DNA from: Candidatus Kaiserbacteria bacterium
GTDB taxonomy: Bacteria; Patescibacteriota; Minisyncoccia; Phycocordibacterales; UBA918
Length of the DNA stretch: 64,000 nt
Reading direction: 5' to 3'
Assembly (NCBI GenBank): GCA_019634005.1
Contig: JAHQWD010000003.1
Location: forward strand, 2,525-66,524
Part shown: piece after piece, positions 6,701 to 49,395 of the stretch
Numbering within the stretch: the first letter of the stretch is position 1
How the letters are laid out: every line of letters starts with the position of its first letter
The notes under the pieces: generated by a model
Told to the model about the DNA's origin: nothing
The model's input: only the letters and a program-made list of their open reading frames with translations
The model's database searches: none
Translations under genes and position numbers: made by a program

Positions 6701-7015
6701 GCGGGCGTAGCTCAATTGGTTAGAGCACCCGCCTGTAGACGTGCAGCTTTCCGTCCGAAAGACGGATTGAAACTTTCCGGGATATCGGTGAAGGCTAAGT
6801 CATTGATGCAGTTAGCTTGAAAAGGTTACTGAGGAGATATGCGAATACCGAGGGAACCCATAACACAAAAACACATAGTTATGGGGCGCCGTAGAGACTA
6901 GATACCGGGATACCTAAGGATAATGAATCTATGGTAAAGATATAGTCCGTGCCATTATGAAAATAGTGGATTTCACGCACGCGGGAGGTTGAGGGTTCGA
7001 GTCCCTTCGCTCGCG
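6701..7015 (+). tRNA. tRNA-Asp (GTC) interrupted by a group I intron (exons 6701-6736 and 6978-7015)
   Basis: Joined exons read GCGGGCGTAGCTCAATTGGTTAGAGCACCCGCCTGT|CACGCGGGAGGTTGAGGGTTCGAGTCCCTTCGCTCGCG. This closely resembles E. coli tRNA-Asp (CCTGCCTGTCACGCAGG...GGTTCGAGTCC), with discriminator G. Confidence 0.8.
6737..6977 (+). mobile_element. group I self-splicing intron (IC3-like tRNA intron) in the anticodon loop of tRNA-Asp
   Basis: The core GCCGTAGAGACTAGATACCGGGATACCTAAGGATAATGAATCTATGG resembles, from memory, the Azoarcus/Anabaena tRNA intron P7/P3/P8-P9 region (GUAGAGACUAGA...CCUAAGG...CUAUGG). The IGS 5'-GUGCAG (6741-6746) can pair with exon CUGU in P1, giving U.G at the 5' splice site, and with the 3' exon CAC in P10. 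A terminal G at 6977 fits omega-G. A P9 extension hairpin carries a GAAA loop. Confidence 0.8.
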
Positions 7016-14711: not shown

Positions 14712-15422
14712 CTAGGTATAGAGGTTTTTGAGGAGCGGCCAATAGATATCTTCTCGTGGTGGAATAAAGAGTTCCTGGGAAGTATCTCGATTAGTGAATA
14801 CAATGTGTGGAATATCCTGTATATGGCAGAGCGGAGTCTGTTCTGCAAGTTCTCCCATCGCGAACACACCAGCAACAGCAAGGGAGTCAACGACATTGAT
14901 TCTCGTGAACTGTGCGGGTCTGTTAAAGAGATCTGGTTTTCCTGTGTAGTACGAGACTGGCTCACATCCATACCAGCCGAGTGCAACGCCGACTGTGCCA
15001 TAGCGAAGTGGTGCGGAGTGAGAGTCAGCGACAATGACACCAAGTTTCTTAACATTGTATGTTTTTGTAAGGAACTCGTGTATCTCTCGTGCACTCTTGT
15101 GAGGATCTTCAGGGAGAAGAATAAGATGCTCATCAGCGTTACTCTCATCAATGCCTGCGCCAGAGAGGAATGTTCCGTGTTTGATACAGATACGCCATCT
15201 GCTGTCTGCATCTTTTATATAGACGTCAGATTCTTTCTCTACAAGGGATTCTTTGTCGACATCTTTTGCAAGCACACAGCGTCCTTCATGGATGGCGACA
15301 ACCTTTGAAGAGACAACGAGTACATCCTCCTCGGAGAGTGAGAGGTTAGACTCTTGTATGGCTTTAAAGAGGTCGTCTTGTGGTGGGGTAAGGAGATGGG
15401 TCTTAATTGCTTCAATATGCAT
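14712..15422 (-). CDS. CofE/FbiB-like protein (coenzyme F420-0:gamma-glutamyl ligase family, COG1478)
   Basis: Family motifs FLSGAGIDESNA and LLPEDP. 236 aa. Confidence 0.6.
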   Translation of the reverse strand: MHIEAIKTHLLTPPQDDLFKAIQESNLSLSEEDVLVVSSKVVAIHEGRCVLAKDVDKESLVEKESDVYIKDADSRWRICIKHGTFLSGAGIDESNADEHLILLPEDPHKSAREIHEFLTKTYNVKKLGVIVADSHSAPLRYGTVGVALGWYGCEPVSYYTGKPDLFNRPAQFTRINVVDSLAVAGVFAMGELAEQTPLCHIQDIPHIVFTNRDTSQELFIPPREDIYWPLLKNLYT

Positions 15423-17130: not shown

Positions 17131-17412
17131 TTAGCGCTTCCAGATCACCGAGCAGGGGTTTGCCGAACGAGCTTCGTGGCGGAGACATTTCTCAATAGCC
17201 GTGATTTTCTTGGCACCACGGACGGTGGTGTTCATGAGGTCGGCGTAGAGGACTGCGGCCTCTTGGTCGTGCTGGAACGCTTCGGCTGCCAGATGGCGGT
17301 CGCCATCGGAATAGTTGAAGTATAGGTTCGTTGCACTCGGAAGGGCGGGGCTCGCAAGGGCGCCGAAGCTCAGAGCGGTTGCTGCGGTAGCAATCATCAG
17401 AATTTTTTTCAT
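17131..17412 (-). CDS. small secreted protein (signal peptide), GC-rich
   Basis: MKKILMIATAATALSFGALASPALP... RBS ggagag. GC is ~58%. Confidence 0.55.
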   Translation of the reverse strand: MKKILMIATAATALSFGALASPALPSATNLYFNYSDGDRHLAAEAFQHDQEAAVLYADLMNTTVRGAKKITAIEKCLRHEARSANPCSVIWKR

Positions 17413-17586: not shown

Positions 17587-18504
17587 ATGATAAAATACAT
17601 GTATATGAAAACACTTATCACACTTATCGTTGTTGCACTTATTGGCCTTGGAGCGTATGTCTTTTTCTACACTCCAGACACGGAGGAATATACACCTTCG
17701 GTCACAGAAGAACAAAGTACCATGGAGGAGGATACAGATACTATGGATCGAGTAGTAGAGGTTGAAAAAGAGACAGAGACAGTCATTGGAACGTCTGTTG
17801 AGGGACGGGACATTACTGCATATCACTATGGAGAAGGAAACACAGAACTCCTCTTTGTTGGCGGTATCCACGGAGGGTACTCTTGGAACACATCACTCGT
17901 TGCCTATGAGCTCATGGACTATCTTGAGAAAGAATCAGAAGTGATTCCTGAGACTGTCCGTGTGACGGTTATTCCAACACTGAATCCCGACGGTCTTGCA
18001 ACTCTTCTTGGAAGCGCAGATCGTTTCAGTGCGAATGATGTACCAGAGGGAAATACGACTGCGGCACGCTTCAATGCGAATGACGTGGATCTTAACCGTA
18101 ACTTTGATTGCGATTGGCAGGAGACTGGCAAGTGGCAGAATACCGACGTAAGCGGCGGATCGGCACCGTTCTCCGAGCCTGAAGCGGAGGCACTCCGCGC
18201 GTATATTGGAGATGATGCACCAGATGCAGTTGTTGTCTGGTACAGCGCGGGAGGAGGAGTCTTTGCTTCAAGTTGTCACAATGGTGTCTCCGAAGAGACG
18301 CTGGCACTTACCGAACTGTATGCGGAGGCCTCAGGATATACTGCTTATGAGAGTTTCGATTTCTACACCATTACTGGTGATATGGTGAACTGGCTTGCGA
18401 AAGAAGGTATTCCTGCAGTAAGCGTCCTTCTTACCACACATACCGACACCGAGTGGTCTCGGAATAAACGCGGTATCGATGCACTATTCGCTACGTATAA
18501 ATAA
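17587..18504 (+). CDS. M14-like zinc carboxypeptidase family protein, predicted catalytically inactive paralog
   Basis: N-terminal TM anchor. Carries the family motifs VDLNRNFD and VIPTLNPDG. However HGGYS, VVWYSA and SVLLTT replace the HGGYE, FWHS and TVELRT of its downstream paralog. The start could be 17605. Confidence 0.7.
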   Translation: MIKYMYMKTLITLIVVALIGLGAYVFFYTPDTEEYTPSVTEEQSTMEEDTDTMDRVVEVEKETETVIGTSVEGRDITAYHYGEGNTELLFVGGIHGGYSWNTSLVAYELMDYLEKESEVIPETVRVTVIPTLNPDGLATLLGSADRFSANDVPEGNTTAARFNANDVDLNRNFDCDWQETGKWQNTDVSGGSAPFSEPEAEALRAYIGDDAPDAVVVWYSAGGGVFASSCHNGVSEETLALTELYAEASGYTAYESFDFYTITGDMVNWLAKEGIPAVSVLLTTHTDTEWSRNKRGIDALFATYK

Positions 18505-19370
18505 TGTCATCTGCTCTTAAATACATAGGGGGTGTTCTTATACTTCTTGCGCTTGGAATAGTGCTCTGGCGAATGTCTACATCAGAAGAGATGCCCGCAC
18601 CTGTCGCTGAGGAAGAGGTTGTTCTTGAAACCGTCTCACCGCAGTCAGTAATTGGAACGTCTGTTGAGGGGCGCTCTATAGAAGCCTACACATATGGAGA
18701 AGGGAGTACCCACCTTCTCTTTGTTGGCGGTATTCACGGAGGGTATGAATGGAACAGCGTACTCCTCGCATATGAGCTTATAGACTACCTTGAAGCATAT
18801 CCCGAAGTACTTCCCGAGACACTTACGGTCACAGTTATTCCCGCACTGAACCCTGACGGACTGTATGCGGTGACAAAAAAAGAAGGACAGTTTGTAGCAT
18901 CAGACGTTACGGGGGACACAACGGTCGGTCGCTTTAATGCAAACGCAGTAGATCTTAACCGTAACTTTGATTGTAAATGGCAGCCAGAGAGTACGTGGCG
19001 CTCCCAGCCAGTGAGTGCTGGTACCAAAGCATTCTCCGAGCCTGAAGCACAAGCCCTTCGAGACTTCGTTCTCGAACAGTCTCCTACAGCTGTTGTCTTT
19101 TGGCACAGTAAGGCAAATGCCGTGTATGCGTCAGAATGTCTGGAGGGGGTACTTCCAGAAACACTCACGCTTATGAATACCTATGCAACAGCTGCGAAGT
19201 ACAGGGCAGTTCCTTCTTTTGATGCATATCCCGTAACTGGAGATGCTGAAGGATGGCTTGCATCTCTGGGTATTCCTGCGATCACGGTAGAGCTTAGAAC
19301 ACATGAGACTATCGAATGGGAACAAAATCGTGCGGCTATCCGAGCGTTGTTTTCTCTGTATGGAGAATAA
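18504..19370 (+). CDS. M14-like zinc carboxypeptidase family protein (predicted active paralog)
   Basis: ~45% identical to the upstream gene. Has HGGYEW, NRNFD, FWHS (His) and TVELRT (Glu). The start ATG overlaps the upstream stop as TAATG. Confidence 0.7.
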   Translation: MSSALKYIGGVLILLALGIVLWRMSTSEEMPAPVAEEEVVLETVSPQSVIGTSVEGRSIEAYTYGEGSTHLLFVGGIHGGYEWNSVLLAYELIDYLEAYPEVLPETLTVTVIPALNPDGLYAVTKKEGQFVASDVTGDTTVGRFNANAVDLNRNFDCKWQPESTWRSQPVSAGTKAFSEPEAQALRDFVLEQSPTAVVFWHSKANAVYASECLEGVLPETLTLMNTYATAAKYRAVPSFDAYPVTGDAEGWLASLGIPAITVELRTHETIEWEQNRAAIRALFSLYGE

Positions 19371-19381
19371 GCATAAACCCT

Positions 19382-19783
19382 ATGATTCATATCAAATATA
19401 AATTAGATAAATCAAACAGACATGGTGTTGGTCTATTTACAGACGAAGATCTAGAAAAGGGACAGTTAGTCTATACCGCAAGTCCCCTCCTCGATGTTGA
19501 TCTTACTCAAGAACAATTTGATCAGTTAACTGACCAGGAGAGAGCGGAAGTTATGTGGTGGGGATATTTTGACGAGCCGAGTCAGCGTTGGCATGTCGAC
19601 TTTGATGTGTCGAAGTTCATTAACCATTCTGAAGAAGGTGTCCTTACGCAAAGTGAGGATCATGACGAGGCATATCTAGTAACGACTCGTGATGTGAGAA
19701 AAGGTGAAGAATTGACCCAGAATTATCTCGAATTTGAGAACGAGGAAGATTTAAGACGGAGGGGGATTAGTGTAGGGGAATAG
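19382..19783 (+). CDS. SET-domain protein (putative lysine methyltransferase)
   Basis: 133 aa with SET motifs: GVGLFT, FINHS(EE) in place of NHSCxPN, and ELTQNY (the ELxxxY C-terminal motif). Confidence 0.65.
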   Translation: MIHIKYKLDKSNRHGVGLFTDEDLEKGQLVYTASPLLDVDLTQEQFDQLTDQERAEVMWWGYFDEPSQRWHVDFDVSKFINHSEEGVLTQSEDHDEAYLVTTRDVRKGEELTQNYLEFENEEDLRRRGISVGE

Positions 19784-49006: not shown

Positions 49007-49027
49007 CCTCCTAAAACTGTGTATAAT
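49000..49027 (+). promoter_or_regulatory. rnpB promoter (TTGTCA-16-TATAAT), -35 overlapping the divergent minus-strand -35
   Basis: Plus strand ttgtca (49000-49005), 16-nt spacer, tataat (49022-49027). Confidence 0.55.
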
Positions 49028-49032
49028 TATGG

Positions 49033-49355
49033 AGTCAGATAGTCGCTAAATACCTTGGTATTTAGAGGAAAGTCCGGACACGCCCCAGTATATGGGAGCA
49101 GGGTAGCGGGTAACACCCGTCTAAGGTAACTTACGAGGTGCGAGCAGAGACGCCCATATTCGAAAGATGCGGGATTCCCTCTGGGAATAGCTCTCATGGC
49201 AATATGAGAGGTGAAACGGCTAAATCCTTACCTGCGTGCAAGACCGTATTCTCGCGTTATGTGCACAGCTGTGTACGCGAGTCTGAGTCGCATGAGGAGT
49301 GCGGTAACGTACTTCCTAGGTAGATGACTATCCACGACAGAATCCGGCTTATCGA
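49033..49355 (+). ncRNA. rnpB: RNase P RNA (bacterial type A)
   Basis: GAGGAAAGTCCGGACAC (P4 5' strand), GGTGAAACGGC and, near the 3' end, GATGACTATCCACGACAGAATCCGGCTTATCG (cf. E. coli GAATGACTGTCCACGACAGAACCCGGCTTATCGG). Ends are approximate, +/-20 nt. Confidence 0.85.
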
Positions 49356-49395
49356 CACACAACAGAGCGCCTTCGGGCGCTCTGTTGTGTTACTA
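49356..49395 (+). terminator. intrinsic terminator after rnpB
   Basis: ACACAACAGAGCGCC-ttcg-GGCGCTCTGTTGTGT, a 15-bp stem. Confidence 0.65.

Follow-up and report, generated by a model that had tools for sequence, protein, structure and literature searches.

Two adjacent genes in a Candidatus Kaiserbacteria genome raise the question of why a bacterium would keep a peptidase-like protein that has lost its catalytic residues directly beside a relative in which the same residues are intact. The genes lie in a stretch of 64,000 nucleotides (contig JAHQWD010000003.1 of assembly GCA_019634005.1, positions 2,525 to 66,524), which is called the window below and in whose numbering all coordinates are given. 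Gene A (17587..18504, plus strand) encodes a membrane-anchored M14 pseudopeptidase of 305 residues, and gene B (18504..19370, plus strand) encodes a membrane-anchored M14 zinc carboxypeptidase of 288 residues that is predicted to be active, as judged from the open reading frames (ORFs), Pfam Peptidase_M14 matches, AlphaFold2 models and Foldseek comparisons. A first-pass annotation, made from the letters of the sequence, had already read the two as an enzyme/pseudoenzyme pair. The analysis presented here makes it highly probable that they are M14 paralogs, one of them dead, which are conserved together as a module, and leads to a more tentative model of what such a module could do at the cell surface.

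Two overlapping genes and their products

The stop codon of A and the start codon of B overlap by 1 base (TAATG), and BLASTP aligns the two proteins with 51% identity over 290 residues (E 9e-101). Paralogy of A and B, as first proposed, is thereby upheld, and only the accompanying figure of ∼45% identity proves slightly low. All of the strings on which that proposal was built are found in the proteins, namely HGGYEW, FWHS and TVELRT in B and HGGYSW, VWYSA and SVLLTT in A, and the motifs NRNFD and NPDG are present in both. Protein A is 100% identical to the database entry P0121 (Candidatus Kaiserbacteria), and the NCBI start of A is Met7, at nucleotide 17605. A scan for sigma-70 promoters gave no convincing plus-strand promoter for the A/B pair.

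In a hidden Markov model search against Pfam Peptidase_M14 (PF00246), which had been suggested as a check, both proteins scored above the curated gathering cut-off of 21.6 bits: A with 68.1 bits (1.2e-18), matching profile positions 20–188 only, and B with 77.9 bits (1.3e-21) over profile positions 20–265. The NCBI name for B, ‘succinylglutamate desuccinylase/aspartoacylase family protein’, is a clan-level label. AstE_AspA_cat (PF24827) matched B at 27.4 bits against a cut-off of 25 and did not match A; because this marginal match is overlapped by the far stronger M14 match, membership in AstE/AspA was rejected. The sole NCBIfam match was MpaA (NF007897), which stayed below threshold for both proteins (40.1 bits for B and 30.5 for A, cut-off 157); A and B thus fail this equivalog test, and only their central or C-terminal part aligns. 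Judged by these alignments, B is related to MpaA and is not itself MpaA.

AlphaFold2 models, built with 149-sequence alignments, had predicted local distance difference test (pLDDT) scores of 93.2 for B and 90.9 for A, and showed a common layout, in which an N-terminal helix is followed by an acidic linker of low confidence and then by a compact alpha/beta domain. When the models were compared with the PDB by Foldseek, carboxypeptidases A, B and T (CPA, CPB and CPT) and MpaA were matched with probability 1.00 and E-values of 1e-14 to 1e-16, B matching CPB, CPA and CPT at E∼1e-16 and A matching CPB, CPT and MpaA at E∼1e-15. The highest target-normalised template modelling (TM) score among these matches was that of MpaA, 0.68–0.72, the value for B being 0.72 (normalised to MpaA). 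In the models, both A and B have the carboxypeptidase A-type alpha/beta fold.

The modelled N-terminal helix, a transmembrane or signal-anchor helix, comprises residues 2–27 of A (17590..17667, plus strand) and residues 3–25 of B (18510..18578, plus strand). It is followed in A by an acidic disordered linker of ∼38 residues, which extends on the plus strand to about nucleotide 17775 and has low pLDDT at residues 31–60, and in B by a linker of ∼25 residues; among A homologs, the linker has a median length of 38 residues and a net charge of −7. A hydrophobic segment at the N-terminus was seen in 120/120 homologs of A and in 117/120 of B, and the three exceptions are short gene calls, NCBI’s call of B among them. 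Membrane anchoring of both proteins, also part of the first-pass annotation, is therefore consistent with models and homologs alike. NCBI’s call of B (P0001, 265 residues) begins at Met24 and omits window positions 18504–18572, so that the membrane helix is lost. A start-site misannotation in this public record is probable, and we favour the 288-residue form because of the homologs and the conserved stop/start overlap. Moreover, nearly all homologs contain exactly two cysteines, both of which are invariant in A-type and B-type sequences, and this suggests an extracytoplasmic disulfide. Because of the anchor helix and these two invariant cysteines, A and B are probably located outside the cytoplasm; the cytoplasmic stub of A has only a few residues and no signalling domain.

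Catalytic and predicted metal positions are intact in B and degenerate in A

For the mapping of residues, protein B or a profile of its family was aligned by HMMER with CPB, CPT and E. coli MpaA, and the positions in A were then read from the A/B alignment, which is gap-free in the active-site regions. Invariance was counted over 121 sequences per type (the top 120 database homologs of each protein). In M14 carboxypeptidases, His69, Glu72 and His196 are zinc ligands, Arg145 binds substrate and Glu270 is the catalytic general base (PMC11266112). All positions in this section are on the plus strand. The HGGYE motif of B (18735..18749), invariant in 121/121 sequences, contains H78 and E82 at the positions of His69 and Glu72, and these are predicted zinc ligands in an H-x3-E arrangement. 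The predicted third zinc ligand is H201 (19104..19106) at the position of CPA His196, likewise invariant, which aligns with the His of ‘LHS’ in CPB, ‘FHT’ in CPT and ‘FHD’ in MpaA. The predicted general base is E263 (19290..19292), again invariant, at the position of CPA Glu270, where it aligns with ‘TFELR’ of CPB and ‘ITAEF’ of MpaA.

In A, the corresponding HGGYS motif (17869..17883) keeps the first ligand as H95, and S99 replaces the Glu72 equivalent; this position holds S in 62 of the 121 sequences, E in 55, A in three and G in one. The other two replacements are nearly uniform, Y219 (18241..18243) standing in place of CPA His196 (Y in 120 sequences, F in one) and L281 (18427..18429) in place of CPA Glu270 (L in 120, I in one). 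Substrate-binding residues are kept in both proteins. By HMMER alignments and conservation, N152-R153 of B (18957..18962) are the equivalents of CPA N144/R145, and Y242 of B takes the position of CPA Tyr248, a residue that binds the substrate carboxylate. This Asn144/Arg145/Tyr248 carboxylate clamp is invariant in both families, as N152/R153/Y242 in B and as N170/R171/Y260 in A, in which N170-R171 are part of NRNFD (18094..18099). Upstream in B, R143 (18930–18932), within the MpaA-like motif R-x-NAN-x-VDLNRNF, is probably the counterpart of Arg127, as is R161 in A.

The positions picked out in the first-pass annotation are thus the M14 metal and catalytic sites by profile alignment to CPB, CPT and MpaA. 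The enzyme/pseudoenzyme pattern agrees with these counts, since H-E-H-E is invariant in B and the substitutions in A are fixed across the lineage while A stays constrained. On the evidence of its residues, A is an M14 homolog by descent and, by the Glu270 criterion, not a peptidase.

The pair is conserved as a module

When one genome per GTDB species was scanned, at least 575 encoded relatives were found, and we analysed the best 80 loci together with one ENA contig (81 loci). The best 80 loci nearly all bear the labels of Patescibacteria groups, with Kaiser-, Campbell-, Nomura-, Taylor- and Buchananbacteria, Paceibacterota and Minisyncoccia represented. The order A then B was found in 78/81 loci, that is, in all of the 78 with upstream sequence, and in the remaining three the contig starts within 170 bases of B. 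Every typable B in these loci is H-E-H-E and every typable A is H-[E/S/A/G]-[Y/F]-[L/I]. Stop and start codons overlap by 1 nt in 40 of 69 pairs; the two genes of the other pairs are mostly less than 20 nt apart. No conserved neighbours of the pair were found in the 81 loci: each type of flanking gene (ParB-like, Nudix, CofE-like, DEAD-box helicase, SET-domain, BipA, Ser hydrolase or MGMT-like) occurs in at most six of them, and none offers a functional clue. Because order, adjacency and overlap are kept while the flanks are shuffled, A and B are likely to be functionally tied. Furthermore, A has 5394 homologs at E<1e-5, and its mean column entropy is 0.91 bits versus 0.95 bits for B. The live/dead pattern is not due to chance, as it is seen again in 78 independent genomes and among the 120 best database homologs of each protein, and in 78/78 informative loci the active and inactive paralogs are adjacent and conserved together.

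In a phylogeny from all alignment columns, the A-types form an exact clade. When the catalytic columns were left out, A alone was recovered in 13/200 bootstraps, and A together with P0300, which is H-E-H-E, in 30/200. Because bootstrap support is weak without the catalytic columns, we leave the duplication undated and make a claim about clustering only: as reconstructed from these alignments, the A-types cluster together and are separate from a second degenerate group, linked to kinase and STAND domains (HAGFAP; H-A-E/G-L), which is a clade of its own in 92/100 bootstraps. P0300 itself is a metagenomic relative of 381 residues with an intact H-E-H-E set and an A-like HAGYES, and it joins the A clade when the catalytic columns are omitted. 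With such weak bootstrap values, it is a possible remnant of the A lineage that has stayed active.

The H-x3-E spacing and the wider subfamily

The spacing of the first two predicted ligands in B departs from the canonical H-x2-E of M14, a point that the first-pass annotation had raised with caution about its own assignment. The motif HGGYEW is invariant in 121/121 B-type sequences, and HGG[YWF]E is without exception in B-types and typical of the subfamily as a whole. When 1.84 billion cluster representatives were searched exhaustively with phmmer, 4721 relatives came up, 335 of them (clusters at 50% identity) at E<=1e-30, and the best 150 relatives have H-G-G-[Y/W/F]-E as a rule. Two relatives, P0317 and P0337, hold a second, canonical HG-DE domain, and hmmalign places E on E with a one-residue deletion. 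In A-types, the Tyr of HGGY is invariant, and the Glu position may hold E, S, A or G; because only the latter drifts in the dead paralog, Glu rather than Tyr probably served the metal site. An ungapped CPT alignment sets Y81, not E82, on Glu72 and is at odds with this assignment. E82 is nevertheless supported by the 121/121 invariance, the alignment of P0317 and P0337 and the drift of Glu in A. The H-x3-E spacing is thus a subfamily rule in which E aligns on E with a one-residue insertion, and, by alignment, it is a trait of a large M14 subfamily. A literature search turned up no experimentally studied member of an H-x3-E M14 subfamily, and nothing was found in the literature on HXXXE with carboxypeptidase or on CPT Asp260/Asp255.

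A model for the pair and the substrate of B

We propose a model in which B is a surface carboxypeptidase acting on muropeptides or stem peptides and A is its non-catalytic, ligand-binding partner, and we consider the chances of the model as a whole to be about even. A and B would form a translationally coupled two-gene module whose paralogous M14 ectodomains stand on the outer side of the cell membrane. B would be a zinc carboxypeptidase with an H-x3-E...H metal site, which most likely trims peptidoglycan peptides, either the stem peptides of the wall or released muropeptides. The residue that it takes off the C-terminus would be one with an amino group, such as Lys, ornithine or diaminopimelate, comparable with the action of MpaA, Pgp1 and Csd4 on tripeptides. 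A should be unable to hydrolyse, as the general base and the third metal ligand are gone and the second is often gone. It would most likely bind the peptide end uncut, because the Asn-Arg/Tyr carboxylate clamp is retained, and the two proteins would probably make a 1:1 complex in which A targets, restrains or gates B.

Activity of B on peptidoglycan-derived peptides is a prediction that we favour by a small degree, because of fusions to LysM, M23 and SLT domains among relatives, the motif shared with MpaA and a database label. A survey of 88 subfamily representatives of at least 330 residues found LysM in 29, M23 in two and SLT lytic transglycosylase domains in two; the representatives that have names belong to Chloroflexota and Promineifilaceae, and few names were obtained in the cluster look-ups. 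The motif R-x-NAN-x-VDLNRNF is common to B and MpaA, and some B homologs bear the IMG label g-D-glutamyl-meso-diaminopimelate peptidase.

Apart from the catalytic positions, the type-specific differences between A and B gather in the S1' pocket loop. This loop is D247-A248-E249 in B (19242..19250, plus strand), with D247 and E249 100% conserved, and D265-M266-V267 in A (18379..18387, plus strand), where V267 replaces the invariant Glu of B. Hence A248/E249/G250 of B stand against M266/V267/N268 of A, with D247/D265 invariant in both. In the HMMER alignment, with the register CPT Y255...W264, E249 falls on the position of CPT Thr262, which we take to be that of CPB Asp255, the determinant of basic-residue specificity. 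From this we infer that the S1' pocket of B is acidic.

MpaA (E. coli b1326; PDB 5HXD, 4AXV) is like A and B in its compact M14 domain of ∼240 residues, for which the target-normalised TM-score is best, and like B in R-x-NAN-x-VDLNRNF, in the F-H third ligand and in the catalytic Glu. It removes the C-terminal meso-diaminopimelate (mDAP) from L-Ala-gamma-D-Glu-mDAP (PMC6403190). Unlike A and B, it has no N-terminal hydrophobic segment and works on a free tripeptide, and unlike B it shows the canonical motif HGDE (H-x2-E) and lacks acidic residues at pocket positions 247/249; HMMER aligns MpaA residues 88–211 only and leaves its N-terminal half unaligned. MpaA is not known to have a dead paralog as partner. 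Pgp1 of C. jejuni and Csd4 of H. pylori also belong to M14, and the ligands of Csd4 are Gln/Glu/His. Both are extracytoplasmic DL-carboxypeptidases that convert wall tripeptides to dipeptides (PMC10151779), which is the reaction, and the location, proposed for B. They differ from B in that they are absent from the PDB match lists and have no detectable close sequence relation to it, and from A and B in their extra C-terminal domains, in being shape determinants of Gram-negative bacteria and in having no paired pseudoenzyme. ENP1 of Lysinibacillus sphaericus (gamma-D-glutamyl-(L)-meso-diaminopimelate peptidase I, MEROPS M14C) combines LysM with M14, as do 29/88 of the long relatives, and acts on peptidoglycan stem peptides; it is likened to the subfamily by description, and its spacing is the canonical H-x2-E.

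The same residues of B can be read in another way. B could be a general nutritional carboxypeptidase that frees mainly basic amino acids from peptides of the environment or a host for an auxotrophic cell of the candidate phyla radiation (CPR) and plays no part in that cell's own wall, with A as peptide-binding helper or decoy, and this we regard as unlikely. The best PDB matches by both sequence and fold are digestive-type CPB, CPA and CPT, to which the resemblance of the acidic S1' loop (D247, E249) to B-type specificity can be added; the Patescibacteria proteins carry no LysM or other wall-binding domains, and wall-synthesis genes are among the neighbours that the module does not conserve. 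Nevertheless, the accessory domains of the subfamily are overwhelmingly peptidoglycan-related (LysM in 29/88, and M23 and SLT), and the compact domain of ∼240 residues with its R-x-NAN-x-VDLNRNF motif is closer to MpaA (TM 0.68–0.72). Moreover, it is not obvious why a dead partner should be universally kept beside a digestive enzyme.

The role of A

That A is a physical partner of B seems to us just short of an even chance; the first-pass annotation had suggested a regulatory or substrate-presenting role for such a partner. A non-catalytic partner role is the most economical one for A because its gene is always next to that of B and the two are translationally coupled, and it is supported by two precedents in other families, in both of which active and inactive paralogs form heterodimers. 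The first comes from H. pylori, in which csd1 and csd2 are adjacent genes. Their products, of M23/LytM type, form a heterodimer of one protein with a full Zn site and a second, metal-free one whose set of ligands is incomplete (PMC5053510). Of the known systems, Csd1-Csd2 comes nearest to the way in which A and B might function; it differs in its M23 fold, in the type of organism and in dimerising through an extra helical domain that A and B do not have. The second is the mitochondrial processing peptidase (MPP) alpha/beta and the prokaryotic M16B proteins, in which an active paralog is combined with an inactive one for substrate binding, the prokaryotic forms being encoded by a two-gene operon (PMC11266112). 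Unlike A and B, these have an unrelated clamshell fold and are endopeptidases on signal or other peptides.

Within M14, the pseudopeptidases covered by a 2024 review are all eukaryotic: AEBP1/ACLP, CPXM1, CPXM2, CPD domain III and yeast Ecm14 (PMC11266112). Like A, they are without Glu270, metal ligands or both, and their action is one of binding, not catalysis (PMC11266112). They lack Arg145, however, which is E, H, N, T and H in AEBP1, CPXM1, CPXM2, CPD-III and Ecm14, respectively, in contrast with the Asn-Arg and Tyr kept by A (PMC11266112). They also differ from A in having Y/K at position 270 and N/Q/D at 196, and none of them is adjacent to, or known to pair with, an active paralog.

Closer relatives of A are found in the second degenerate group. 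In the metagenomic relatives P0369, P0389 and P0388, which lie outside the window, a degenerate M14 domain is the C-terminal module, and the fusion partners are a Ser/Thr kinase, an NTPase of the nSTAND1 type and a trypsin-like peptidase. This group keeps Arg, Asn-Arg and Tyr, as A does. Dead domains have therefore, by sequence, arisen at least two times in the subfamily; those of the kinase/STAND group are placed where sensor or ligand-binding modules usually sit. The dead domains probably serve as ligand binders, and P0369, P0389 and P0388 are possible muropeptide-sensing receptors.

These fusions use dead domains in a sensor-like manner with no active domain attached, and so lend some weight to the view that A and B are independent, with A serving on its own as a receptor for peptides or muropeptides, or as a structural protein that binds the wall, and lying beside B only through tandem duplication. 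The pocket residues of A, which are unlike those of B, point the same way. Such a receptor would, however, have few cytoplasmic residues and no signalling domain with which to signal, and order and adjacency are kept in 78/78 loci despite the shuffled flanks; we consider independence of the two proteins rather improbable.

Very improbable, in our view, is that A is still an enzyme, with a changed mechanism or reaction in which, for example, the Tyr is a ligand or nucleophile, so that A and B would both be active. In favour of this, His95 is invariant, about half of the A-types keep the Glu ligand and the substrate-binding Arg, Asn and Tyr are all retained. Yet Leu or Ile occupies the site of the general base in every case, several lineages have Phe instead of the Tyr, and the Glu72 site varies among E, S, A and G; the three changed sites hold no conserved polar catalytic group. 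Because Tyr alternates with Phe and Leu with Ile, no new catalytic group has replaced His or Glu in A, and an alternative catalytic Tyr was rejected on the alternation with Phe. In addition, known M14 homologs without Glu270 are reported to be inactive pseudopeptidases, and activity of Ecm14 was undetected in standard assays (PMC11266112). Finally, that A is a decaying duplicate without function, as the loss of three catalytic and metal residues might suggest, was rejected and has a negligible probability, given its intact frame, thousands of homologs at 57–72% identity, conservation equal to that of B (0.91 versus 0.95 bits) and the same substitutions fixed in 78 genomes from many Patescibacteria groups.

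The model of B as a wall-peptide carboxypeptidase with A as its partner has itself to be set against several observations that weigh on the other side. The geometry of H-x3-E and the assignment of pocket residues were both derived from aligned sequences, and a PDB search with the family profile found no solved structure of the subfamily, the best match being mosquito CPB (E 2e-15). The relatives with wall-linked domains are 37–50% identical and, where named, come from Chloroflexota, and Pfam found no wall-binding domain such as LysM in A or B. A general peptide-scavenging carboxypeptidase would fit the same residues of B. For A, the pocket differs from that of B and may hold another ligand or none, and some A-types may bind metal, about half of them keeping the Glu72 equivalent. 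Co-occurrence and coupling, lastly, also fit proteins that act serially or in parallel.

Other features of the window

Directly downstream of the pair, 6 nt from B and on the same strand, lies a gene for a SET-domain protein (19376–19783, plus strand; Pfam SET, 1.1e-11), which is not conserved beside the pair in other genomes. Upstream of A, an ORF of 93 residues (17131–17412, minus strand) is oriented divergently; it has a signal-peptide-like N-terminus and no Pfam match, and none of the 81 related loci contained a homolog. In front of it lies a promoter-like site (17489–17462, minus strand) with TTGACA, a 16-nt spacing, TATAAT and an extended TG, which is 12/12 to the sigma-70 consensus. Farther upstream is a gene for a CofE-like F420-0:gamma-glutamyl ligase (14712–15422, minus strand; Pfam F420_ligase, 1.7e-37), which overlaps the upstream end of a longer ORF with a Nudix domain in its downstream part.

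Two RNA genes were also noted. A tRNA-Asp(GUC) gene (6701–7015, plus strand) has its anticodon loop split by a group I intron of ∼241 nt, roughly at 6737–6977. The Rfam Intron_gpI match (6711–6969) reached 50.2 bits against a gathering score of 50, and ARAGORN missed the gene on the raw window and recovered a clean 75-nt tRNA-Asp after in silico removal of the intron. Group I introns of bacterial tRNA genes are known in tRNA-Leu, tRNA-fMet, tRNA-Arg and tRNA-Ile. A bacterial RNase P class A RNA is encoded at 49027–49366 (plus strand, 131 bits).

Implications for the M14 family and for Patescibacteria

Full-text literature searches on Patescibacteria or Parcubacteria with M14 or carboxypeptidase found nothing, and neither did a search on M14 pseudoenzymes with peptidoglycan; no published bacterial M14 pseudopeptidase turned up. 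What is new here is a predicted enzyme/pseudoenzyme pair in a family and a lineage without an earlier description of one, built on a variant zinc motif. Through the pair, a large M14 subfamily comes into view, with at least 335 clusters at E<=1e-30 and a zinc motif that is one residue longer. Control by pseudoenzyme partners is a recurring theme for dangerous wall hydrolases in bacteria, as in the LytM factors and Csd1-Csd2, and much of the Patescibacteria has a live/dead M14 pair as a fixed trait. Because the tiny genomes of Patescibacteria rarely keep spare genes, the dead copy must do something important. The ectodomains of A and B are small, well predicted and free of other domains, which makes them easy experimental targets.

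CPR cells of the Paceibacteria type are thought to be host-attached and unable to make many building blocks. A further proposal, which goes well beyond the model above and which we hold to be a rather improbable one, is that the pair is a lineage-defining surface device of such cells, in which a dead M14 domain, as dedicated receptor for the end of a peptidoglycan peptide, gates a carboxypeptidase with an H-x3-E zinc site not seen before, and which could act on the host wall or on shed muropeptides. If this is true, A would be the first bacterial M14 pseudopeptidase, and the A/B device could harvest diamino acids or remodel the site of host contact, giving a handle on the interaction between CPR bacteria and their hosts.

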